Shown here one piece after another: positions 19,874-19,955 of a stretch of DNA of 64,000 bases (position 1 is its first letter; each line of letters begins with the position of its first letter). The notes beneath the pieces were generated by a model. That model had not been told where the DNA came from and made no database searches. It was given only the letters and a program-made list of their open reading frames with translations. The DNA is from Escherichia phage phi92: the sequence record NC_023693.1; one strand, 5' to 3'. The translations under genes and the position numbers were made by a program.

Positions 19874-19955
19874 CGGGGTGTATCTCACCTGACTTCTAAT
19901 CAGGCGTTAACCGAGTAATTGGAGTATGCAGGTTCGAATCCTGTCACCCCGGCCA
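19874..19955 (+). ncRNA. non-canonical tRNA-like element (Arg TCT-type anticodon hairpin, no canonical D-arm)
   Basis: perfect acceptor pairing CGGGGTG/CACCCCG, T-arm GCAGG-TTCGAAT-CCTGT, CCA, anticodon-like hairpin CCTGA-CTTCTAA-TCAGG, but only 7 nt where the D-arm should be and a 23-nt variable region. Confidence 0.4.

Follow-up and report, generated by a model that had tools for sequence, protein, structure and literature searches.

A probable phage tRNA-Arg(UCU) gene in which the D hairpin appears to be replaced by a strand-swapped long-range helix

A tRNA-like gene with a rearranged core

Amongst the tRNA genes of Escherichia phage phi92 there is one, located at positions 19874-19955 on the plus strand of the window (the whole stretch of 64,000 nucleotides from record NC_023693.1 that was analysed), which is best read from its sequence as a tRNA-Arg gene whose D hairpin has been replaced by a strand-swapped long-range helix. 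The gene is conserved, all of its helices covary, its relatives carry anticodons for arginine and isoleucine only, the presumptive identity bases change together with the anticodon class, and the codon to be read is in high demand in the phage. We consider it quite probable that the gene specifies a working tRNA-Arg(UCU) with a promoter of its own, which would be charged by the host ArgRS via a relocated A20 together with C35, U36 and G73 and would decode AGA and AGG.

The window is part of the genome of a phi92-like E. coli phage (Justusliebigvirus, Stephanstirmvirinae), and the 601 bases around the element are 98-99.7% identical to many such genomes. All features of the tRNA-like element were found between the above coordinates (Table 1). 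The parts that a first-pass annotation of this DNA had described as canonical, namely the 7-bp acceptor stem, the T arm with its UUCGAAU loop, the discriminator and the CCA, are indeed all in place, as is the perfect anticodon hairpin with TCT, and with a 5-bp T stem and T-loop consensus, a 5-bp anticodon stem, a 7-nt loop, U33 and a purine at position 37 the RNA of 79 nt plus CCA displays the hallmarks of a tRNA. A D-arm hairpin between positions 9 and 26 is missing. The connector UAUCUCA (19881-19887) places 7 nt between the acceptor and anticodon stems, and the region preceding the T arm, CGUUAACCGAGUAAUUGGAGUAU, comprises 23 nt (19905-19927), both as annotated earlier; the 8-nt bulge within the latter reads CGUUAANN. 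Those copies from enterobacterial phages that were read (window, L001-L007) encode the CCA, a property common to all other tRNA genes of the window cluster, and the Streptomyces phage copy does not.

Table 1. Features of the element and its promoter in the window
Feature	Position	Strand	Evidence and remarks
Sigma-70-type promoter	19834..19862	+	TTGACA (19834-19839), 17-nt spacer, (TG)nTATAGT (TATAGT 19857-19862); 11/12 match
Acceptor stem 5' strand CGGGGUG	19874..19880	+	7 pairs with 19945-19951; double-sided changes in 6/7 pairs across the family
Invariant UA, equivalents of U8 and A9	19881..19882	+	UA also in members found with a pattern omitting these bases
UCUC, 5'-side strand of the long-range 'pseudo-D' helix	19883..19886	+	CUC pairs with GAG 19913-19915; U19883 faces U19916
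Single nucleotide, position-26 equivalent, joining pseudo-D helix and anticodon stem	19887	+	A in most members, elsewhere C or U
Anticodon arm, stem CCUGA/UCAGG, loop CUUCUAA	19888..19904	+	Anticodon UCU 19895-19897; U33 and A37 present; 5/5 pairs covary
Linker CGUUAACC, 8-nt bulge from anticodon stem to pseudo-D 3'-side strand	19905..19912	+	CGUUAA invariant in the tight family (required by the search pattern)
GAGU, 3'-side strand of the pseudo-D helix	19913..19916	+	Covariation in the family alignment
D-loop-like segment AAUUGGAGUA plus U	19917..19927	+	Resemblance by sequence; proposed A14, R15, Y16, Y17, G18, G19, A20, ..., A21, U48
T arm GCAGG, UUCGAAU, CCUGU	19928..19944	+	Sequence, Rfam alignment, family covariation
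Acceptor stem 3' strand CACCCCG	19945..19951	+	Pairs with 19874-19880
Discriminator G73 (G19952) and encoded CCA (19953-19955)	19952..19955	+	Sequence

With respect to gene finding, ARAGORN called 15 other tRNAs in the window and passed over the element, as it did with the native sequences of the family described below (0/46 called). By means of the Rfam model RF00005, 14 matches were obtained in the window cluster, including one at 19874-19952 that ARAGORN had missed; it scored 38.6 bits (E = 4e-07, local search), above the gathering score of 29, with 15 D-arm positions of the model reduced to 4 nt in the alignment and 20 nt inserted before the T arm. Neither ARAGORN nor the Rfam model recovered a standard cloverleaf by an alternative alignment. 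In a search of the element against Rfam, the general tRNA model alone responded, with no match to tmRNA or another family and no dedicated family.

Covariation of the long-range helix

Family members were collected by sequence patterns, and 46 distinct sequences were aligned (alignment A1). In this alignment, the proposed four-helix structure is paired in 97.9% of cells, as compared to 65.8% for shuffles and a maximum of 47.8% for slid controls. Double-sided changes occur at 17 of the 20 pairs, and all helices covary, that is, the acceptor, anticodon and T stems as well as the pseudo-D helix. The latter (columns 11-13 with 40-42) is paired in 100% of the 46 sequences. Two of its pairs were left unconstrained by the search pattern, the filter having computed them without selecting on them, and it is at these pairs that the evidence lies: pair 12-41 occurs as UA (26), GC (12), AU (7) and CG (1), pair 13-40 as CG (33), GC (10) and UA (3), with 20 and 13 double-sided changes, respectively (33 in total), and no single-sided change. 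The third pair, C-G at 11-42, carries no evidence because it was fixed by the search pattern. Read as triplets, following UAU in the connector and preceding GUAA in the pre-T region, the two strands change in concert from CUC/GAG to CGC/GCG, CGU/ACG, CUU/AAG and CAC/GUG, and further to CGG/CCG, CAG/CUG, CAU/AUG and CCC/GGG.

Apart from these triplets, the homologues show hardly any variation in the connector, in the anticodon loop, which is almost invariant across the alignment, and in the pre-T region, and they show compensated variation in the stems. In part, GUAUC, CGUUAA, GUAA and GGAGUAU are invariant by construction, since the members had been sought by patterns. When given the alignment as its only input, RNAalifold returned the same structure including the pseudo-D helix, and a covariance model built from the family (R1) scored the window element at 98.6 bits and the canonical tRNAs of the window at no more than 25 bits.

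The same architecture recurs with different helix sequences in divergent subfamilies, where the linker has other sequences and a length of 3-11 nt. A divergent Ile(GAU) member, for example, combines a full AACC/GGUU helix of 4 bp with a linker of 5 nt and AAUUGGUUA, and a divergent Arg(UCU) member carries in its D-loop-like segment AAUUGGAUAGAAC, which we take to be close to the D-loop of E. coli tRNA-Arg (argU).

The earlier description of the element as devoid of a D arm thus needs to be qualified: there is no local D hairpin, as had been claimed, yet the connector is not left unpaired and instead forms a covarying long-range helix of 3 bp (plus a U.U layer) that is followed by a D-loop-like segment.

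Less can be retained of the 23 nt as a variable arm. According to such a reading, the element would be a class II-like tRNA with a self-contained variable arm of 23 nt and no D arm, perhaps charged by SerRS and recoding AGA. The single-sequence MFE and centroid folds do prefer a local hairpin before the T arm, CCGA-GUAA-UUGG (z = -1.87), the 3-bp pseudo-D helix being weak in nearest-neighbour terms, and G73 is also the discriminator of tRNA-Ser in E. coli (PMC9976931). Across the family, however, this hairpin is paired in only 65.4% of cells with compensation in 2 cells at one pair, and it competes for the bases of the pseudo-D helix, amongst them the G and A whose covariation with the connector is perfect; moreover, the anticodon class tracks the identity bases of Arg and Ile and not those of Ser. 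Since the connector forms a helix with the pre-T region and the nucleotides behind this helix resemble a D-loop that has been relocated, the 23 nt do not constitute a variable arm, and a class II-like tRNA is very improbable. Also rejected was a helix between CUC and the second GAG (19922-19924), as GGAG is kept where the connector becomes CGC, CGU, CAC and so on.

Equally at odds with the family data is a decaying tRNA pseudogene that has suffered a D-arm deletion and an insertion into the variable loop. It would fit with the silence of ARAGORN, the lack of annotation in most GenBank records and the labels Undet or OTHER given by annotation pipelines, but the element is conserved over its full length in phage records and many metagenomic viral contigs, every helix including the novel one shows compensatory changes, and a near-consensus promoter has been kept in front of what is the only tRNA-Arg of the phage; decay is hence hardly credible.

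When the family sequences were de-permuted, ARAGORN called 46/46 as tRNA-Arg or tRNA-Ile, a result that only illustrates the model because 175 of 230 shuffled controls (76%) were called as well.

Anticodons, identity bases and codon demand

A structure-anchored census of all fetched loci yielded 59 distinct detector hits, one of which (CUU, L137) was set aside as a likely false call. The remaining 58 members have Arg anticodons (UCU 42, UCG 2, CCU 2, ACG 1, GCG 1) or Ile anticodons (UAU 9, GAU 1) and no others. The base after GG is A in 47 of 48 Arg types and U or G in 10 of 10 Ile types. As for the discriminator, every one of the 10 Ile types has A, and the Arg types have G in 27 cases, A in 17 and U in 4. 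These counts are not to be taken as independent events since the sequences are related; nevertheless, the Ile types are spread over several subfamilies that differ in their linkers. For bacteria, the Arg identity set has been given as A20 (the main determinant for E. coli ArgRS), C35, U or G at position 36 and A, G or U at position 73, and the Ile set as including A73 and U20 (PMC9976931). As far as can be judged by sequence comparison, the patterns of the base after GG and of the discriminator match these sets. The window element has the C35, U36 and G73 of the Arg set; A19923, proposed here as the equivalent of the arginine identity base at position 20, follows GG in a relocated segment without the usual D-loop, and its equivalence to position 20 is one that we infer. 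Together with the match to the Rfam tRNA model in spite of the missing D arm and with the covarying helices, the Arg and Ile anticodons with their matching identity bases support the non-canonical tRNA that the first-pass annotation had listed first amongst its suggestions.

Counted over 51 long ORFs in the window, which has a GC content of 37.7%, AGA accounts for 29% of the Arg codons and amounts to 11.6 per 1000 codons. In E. coli, AGA is amongst the rarest codons. ARAGORN found no other tRNA-Arg in the window, and the relative Paula, a phage for which 16 tRNAs are annotated, has none amongst them. Of 76 loci with a rewired tRNA, 5 also hold a canonical tRNA for that anticodon, as does 1 of the 31 loci with 8 or more canonical tRNAs; some of these cases may be due to ARAGORN calling the element itself. 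The other Arg anticodons in the same clusters are borne by canonical tRNAs. Some contigs hold several rewired tRNAs, such as L179 with UCG and UCU (3788-3865 and 4087-4164), L113 with CCU and UCU (12999-13077 and 13348-13426) and L200 with two GAU and one UAU (4121-4197, 5182-5262 and 5269-5347), which indicates that the scaffold has diversified within single genomes.

These observations also bear on the decoy for host nucleases that had been suggested earlier, and more generally on a tRNA mimic acting outside translation, be it as decoy, sponge or inhibitor for a tRNA-targeting defence (e.g. an anticodon nuclease of the colicin D type acting on tRNA-Arg) or for a tRNA-binding protein, whose odd core would bar it from the ribosome or make it uncleavable. 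The core is non-canonical, the anticodon loop is nearly invariant as would be expected of a nuclease bait, and the mismatched anticodon stem of the neighbouring tRNA-Lys (see below) fits with nuclease selection on phage tRNAs. There is also published precedent, since an action of phage tRNAs against tRNA-depleting defences has been both proposed and demonstrated (PMC10264068; Azam et al. 2024). A bait, however, needs no joint switch of the post-GG base and the discriminator with the anticodon class, and neither a 7/5 acceptor-T branch nor a CCA; nor would it be expected to be the sole carrier of its anticodon amongst clusters of canonical tRNAs, in a phage with a high AGA demand and no other tRNA-Arg. 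With Arg or Ile anticodons only, matching synthetase identity bases and no positive support, a decoy or other mimic is retained as a rival explanation and is considered unlikely.

Promoter and neighbouring tRNA genes

The tRNA cluster of the window extends from 19625 to 22544 on the plus strand. The TTGACA promoter that had been noticed directly upstream of the element proved to be the best of 13 promoter-like sites in the cluster and has an upstream TG extension. Near-consensus TTGACA promoters are located at 19834, 19974 (tRNA-Ser) and 21282 (tRNA-Gly), each just upstream of a tRNA gene on the plus strand, and no intrinsic terminator was found between the genes of the cluster; therefore, several internal promoters seem to drive it. 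As the element has a promoter of its own it is not needed as punctuation of a longer transcript, and the idea of a processing scaffold, put forward in the first-pass annotation, found no positive support, the element being in addition usually the sole tRNA for its anticodon in the cluster. The promoter sequence is identical in the relative PATM even in the presence of a 126-nt insertion upstream of it.

This insertion lies between tRNA-Leu and the element promoter (L001 3719-3850; vB_Eco_PATM, also in arall, VEcB and others). Inspected by eye, its ends resemble those of an acceptor stem, one hairpin (AUGG-UUCGAUU-CCAU) resembles a T arm, and there is an internal hairpin of 7 bp; as a tRNA it was called by neither ARAGORN nor Rfam.

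Two further genes of the cluster are unusual as well. The tRNA-Lys(UUU) at 20508-20583 (+), which ARAGORN reports as 'tRNA-???' and Rfam scores at 63.7 bits, has the anticodon-stem mismatches A.A at 27-43 and U.C at 31-39, reminiscent of reported changes in the anticodon arms of phage tRNAs that evade anticodon nucleases. The tRNA-Asn(GUU) at 20683-20767 (+) has 85 nt and a true variable-arm hairpin, GAAC-GAAA-GUUC, and is thus class II-like, which is unusual for Asn.

Proposed structure and function

For the preferred reading of the element as a working tRNA-Arg(UCU), we infer expression, processing, folding into an L shape, charging and decoding as follows. Transcription from the strong sigma-70 promoter would start a few nucleotides before 19874 and yield a short 5' leader, RNase P would generate the mature end at 19874, and the CCA would already be supplied by the gene. 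The UCUC following U8-A9 would then pair with the GAGU located 8 nt past the anticodon stem, forming a 3-bp helix and one U.U layer, and this pseudo-D helix might stack on the anticodon stem to give 5 + 1 + 4 layers, equal to the anticodon stem, position 26 and D stem of a canonical tRNA. In effect, the 5' strand of the D stem and the D-loop would have changed places to lie 3' of the anticodon arm, with the strand after A9 taking over the place of the D-stem 3' strand.

The segment AAUUGGAGUA-U might act as D-loop plus position 48, G18 and G19 reaching the T loop, A14 contacting U8 and A15 contacting U48. The resulting three-way junction could still fold into the L shape, as the partners for U8/A14, A15/U48 and G18-G19/T loop are all available; since the bases concerned are invariant, these contacts receive no support from covariation. 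The A20 equivalent would contact ArgRS, charging would proceed through A20, C35, U36 and G73, and the charged tRNA would read AGG and AGA, the latter of which is abundant in the phage.

If the element is a working tRNA, it would follow that decoding on an ordinary bacterial ribosome does not require the four-way cloverleaf, and that a tRNA with a three-way junction and a strand-swapped D stem is in routine use by common culturable phages of E. coli, Salmonella, Klebsiella and Streptomyces. As the carriers include members of laboratory phage collections, this claim is directly testable. The scaffold further represents a natural experiment on what ArgRS and IleRS need of the tRNA core, and it is a possible orthogonal scaffold for engineering.

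Comparison with known tRNAs

Canonical tRNA-Arg(UCU) species such as E. coli argU and the T4 tRNA-Arg have in common with the element the 7-bp acceptor stem, the 5-bp T stem with UUCGAAU, the 5-bp anticodon stem, a loop of the CUUCUAA type, U8, A9, G73, CCA and a GG-A motif matching G18, G19 and A20, as well as, presumably, the role as decoder of the host-rare AGA. The element differs from them in that it has no D hairpin, the partner of nucleotides 10-13 being located after the anticodon arm, in that the D-loop-like segment joins this helix to the T stem so that a three-way instead of a four-way junction results, and in its extra 8-nt bulge.

A short connector in place of the D hairpin and an extended helix on the anticodon side are also found in the metazoan mitochondrial tRNA-Ser(AGY/AGN) and in the minimal tRNAs of nematodes and mites. 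Mitochondrial tRNA-Ser reads AGN codons. The D-arm-lacking mitochondrial tRNAs are about 55-65 nt long, have short variable loops and depend on adapted organellar factors (PMC4394434, PMC2797822), whereas the element has 79 nt plus CCA and a GG-containing loop and would require ordinary bacterial EF-Tu, ribosomes and synthetases. A relocated D-loop motif is lacking in the mitochondrial tRNAs, and in the element the 7-nt connector pairs with the 23-nt region of a full-sized RNA, which sets it apart from the mitochondrial type.

Similar to the element, allo-tRNAs, 8/4 or 9/3 tRNAs and tRNA-Sec occur in phage tRNA clusters and metagenomes and are missed or mislabelled by annotation (PMC5389517). 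The 8/4 and 9/3 tRNAs have a changed acceptor/T split together with true hairpin variable arms and D arms (Mukai et al., PMC5389517), in contrast to the canonical 7/5 split and rearranged D region of the element. The tRNA-like domain of tmRNA, YrlA and viral TLS, in which an acceptor/T module lacking an anticodon arm for decoding is linked to a further functional module, do not correspond to the element either, which has a complete anticodon arm and no extra module.

A non-canonical order of segments in the gene is shared with the circularly permuted tRNA genes of Cyanidioschyzon merolae, where the whole gene is permuted and a normal tRNA is regained when the transcript is processed via a circular intermediate. 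In the element, by contrast, the D 5' strand and loop alone are displaced, the ends are intact and it is the mature RNA itself that would be rewired.

Closest in another respect are about 31 distinct phage tRNA-Ile(UAU) genes from IMG/VR (e.g. L356, L363, L339, L334) of 88-90 nt with a normal D arm, GUUU-AAUGGUA-AAAC, and a variable region of 20-22 nt in which neither a hairpin nor a long-range helix is evident. Like the element they carry the motif U-AAUUGG-NNN-AU right before the T stem, reside in phage tRNA clusters and serve an A-ending codon, which in the case of tRNA-Ile(UAU) is rare in many bacterial hosts. The presence of the motif next to a normal D arm suggests that it may have a role other than replacing the D-loop, and these D-armed genes may be evolutionary relatives or intermediates.

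Distribution in phages and annotation

A blastn search with the 82-nt element (E <= 1e-10) returned 252 matching GenBank phage records, in 250 of which at least 80% of the element is covered. They belong to at least seven lineages, comprising Justusliebigvirus, Felixounavirus, Mydovirus, the jumbo phage 121Q and Klebsiella phages of 109 kb, and further Escherichia phages with podovirus-sized genomes of 70-77 kb, an Erwinia phage and Streptomyces phages, so that the hosts of scaffold-bearing phages span different phyla. Three pattern scans of IMG/VR, each giving at least 120 loci, added dozens of further members. No match was found in 72,556 plasmids (PLSDB) or in 5,426 complete E. coli genomes. 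A scan of bacterial and archaeal genomes gave at least 120 matches, and amongst the 96 that were read with model R1 the sole member resides on a MAG contig of 5.5 kb (L292). An origin in cellular genomes is disfavoured, the 96 genome matches read being chance matches except for L292 and both the complete E. coli genomes and the PLSDB plasmids being free of the element.

On L292, which is binned in a Neisseriaceae MAG, the sequence at 1458-1544 matches a member up to the T stem and is then followed by unrelated sequence, so that this interrupted copy may contain an insertion or may be truncated; another copy, divergent and uninterrupted, is located at 2103-2179.

The spread of the scaffold through phages and its absence from the cellular sequences searched suggest a phage-specific advantage, and such an advantage as the cause of the rewired core is an attractive thought. 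Accordingly worded, one alternative holds that the working tRNA-Arg owes its rewired core to selection for the core itself, by escape from host tRNases, from modification-dependent quality control or from the phage's own host-shutoff tRNases; it adds a cause to the preferred explanation and does not replace it. It would be in line with the occurrence of the scaffold in unrelated phage lineages with hosts in different phyla and its absence from plasmids, from complete E. coli genomes and, a single short MAG contig excepted, from the genome matches listed, and phage tRNAs that evade such attack have been published (PMC10264068). On the other hand, descent from a single ancestor could be enough to explain why no anticodons other than those for Arg and Ile occur, and selection on the core is put forward here only tentatively. 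More speculative still, and rather doubtful, is the view of the RNA as a topological tRNA isomer whose L shape is accepted by ArgRS or IleRS, EF-Tu and the ribosome, and which spread because it is invisible to tRNA-targeting immunity or to host-shutoff tRNases.

In the annotation of relatives, the gene appears as 'tRNA-Undet' or 'tRNA-OTHER' in some records processed by tRNAscan-based pipelines, as tRNA-Leu in the jumbo phage 121Q, and not at all in most of the 252 records. Since it is unannotated or labelled 'Undet/OTHER' in most records, the carrier phages appear to be without a tRNA-Arg(UCU) that they probably have, and studies relating phage tRNA content to codon usage are biased by the missed annotation. 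No description of this architecture was found in a literature search whose journal coverage was incomplete, so that an earlier report elsewhere is possible; with this proviso, a tRNA architecture not found reported is widespread in cultured phages.

Amongst the matching records, four labelled 'Campylobacter phage' (MG065639, MG065645, MG065656 and MG065689; about 146.4 kb) are 98.5-100% identical to the E. coli Justusliebigvirus in this region, and their host label looks doubtful. In the Streptomyces phage Francob, a gene annotated 'Ro-like RNA binding protein' (L008 1-147) precedes the element copy, its end being some 1.35 kb upstream. Ro proteins bind the tRNA-like Y RNAs; the proximity is probably a coincidence of the tRNA-cluster neighbourhood.
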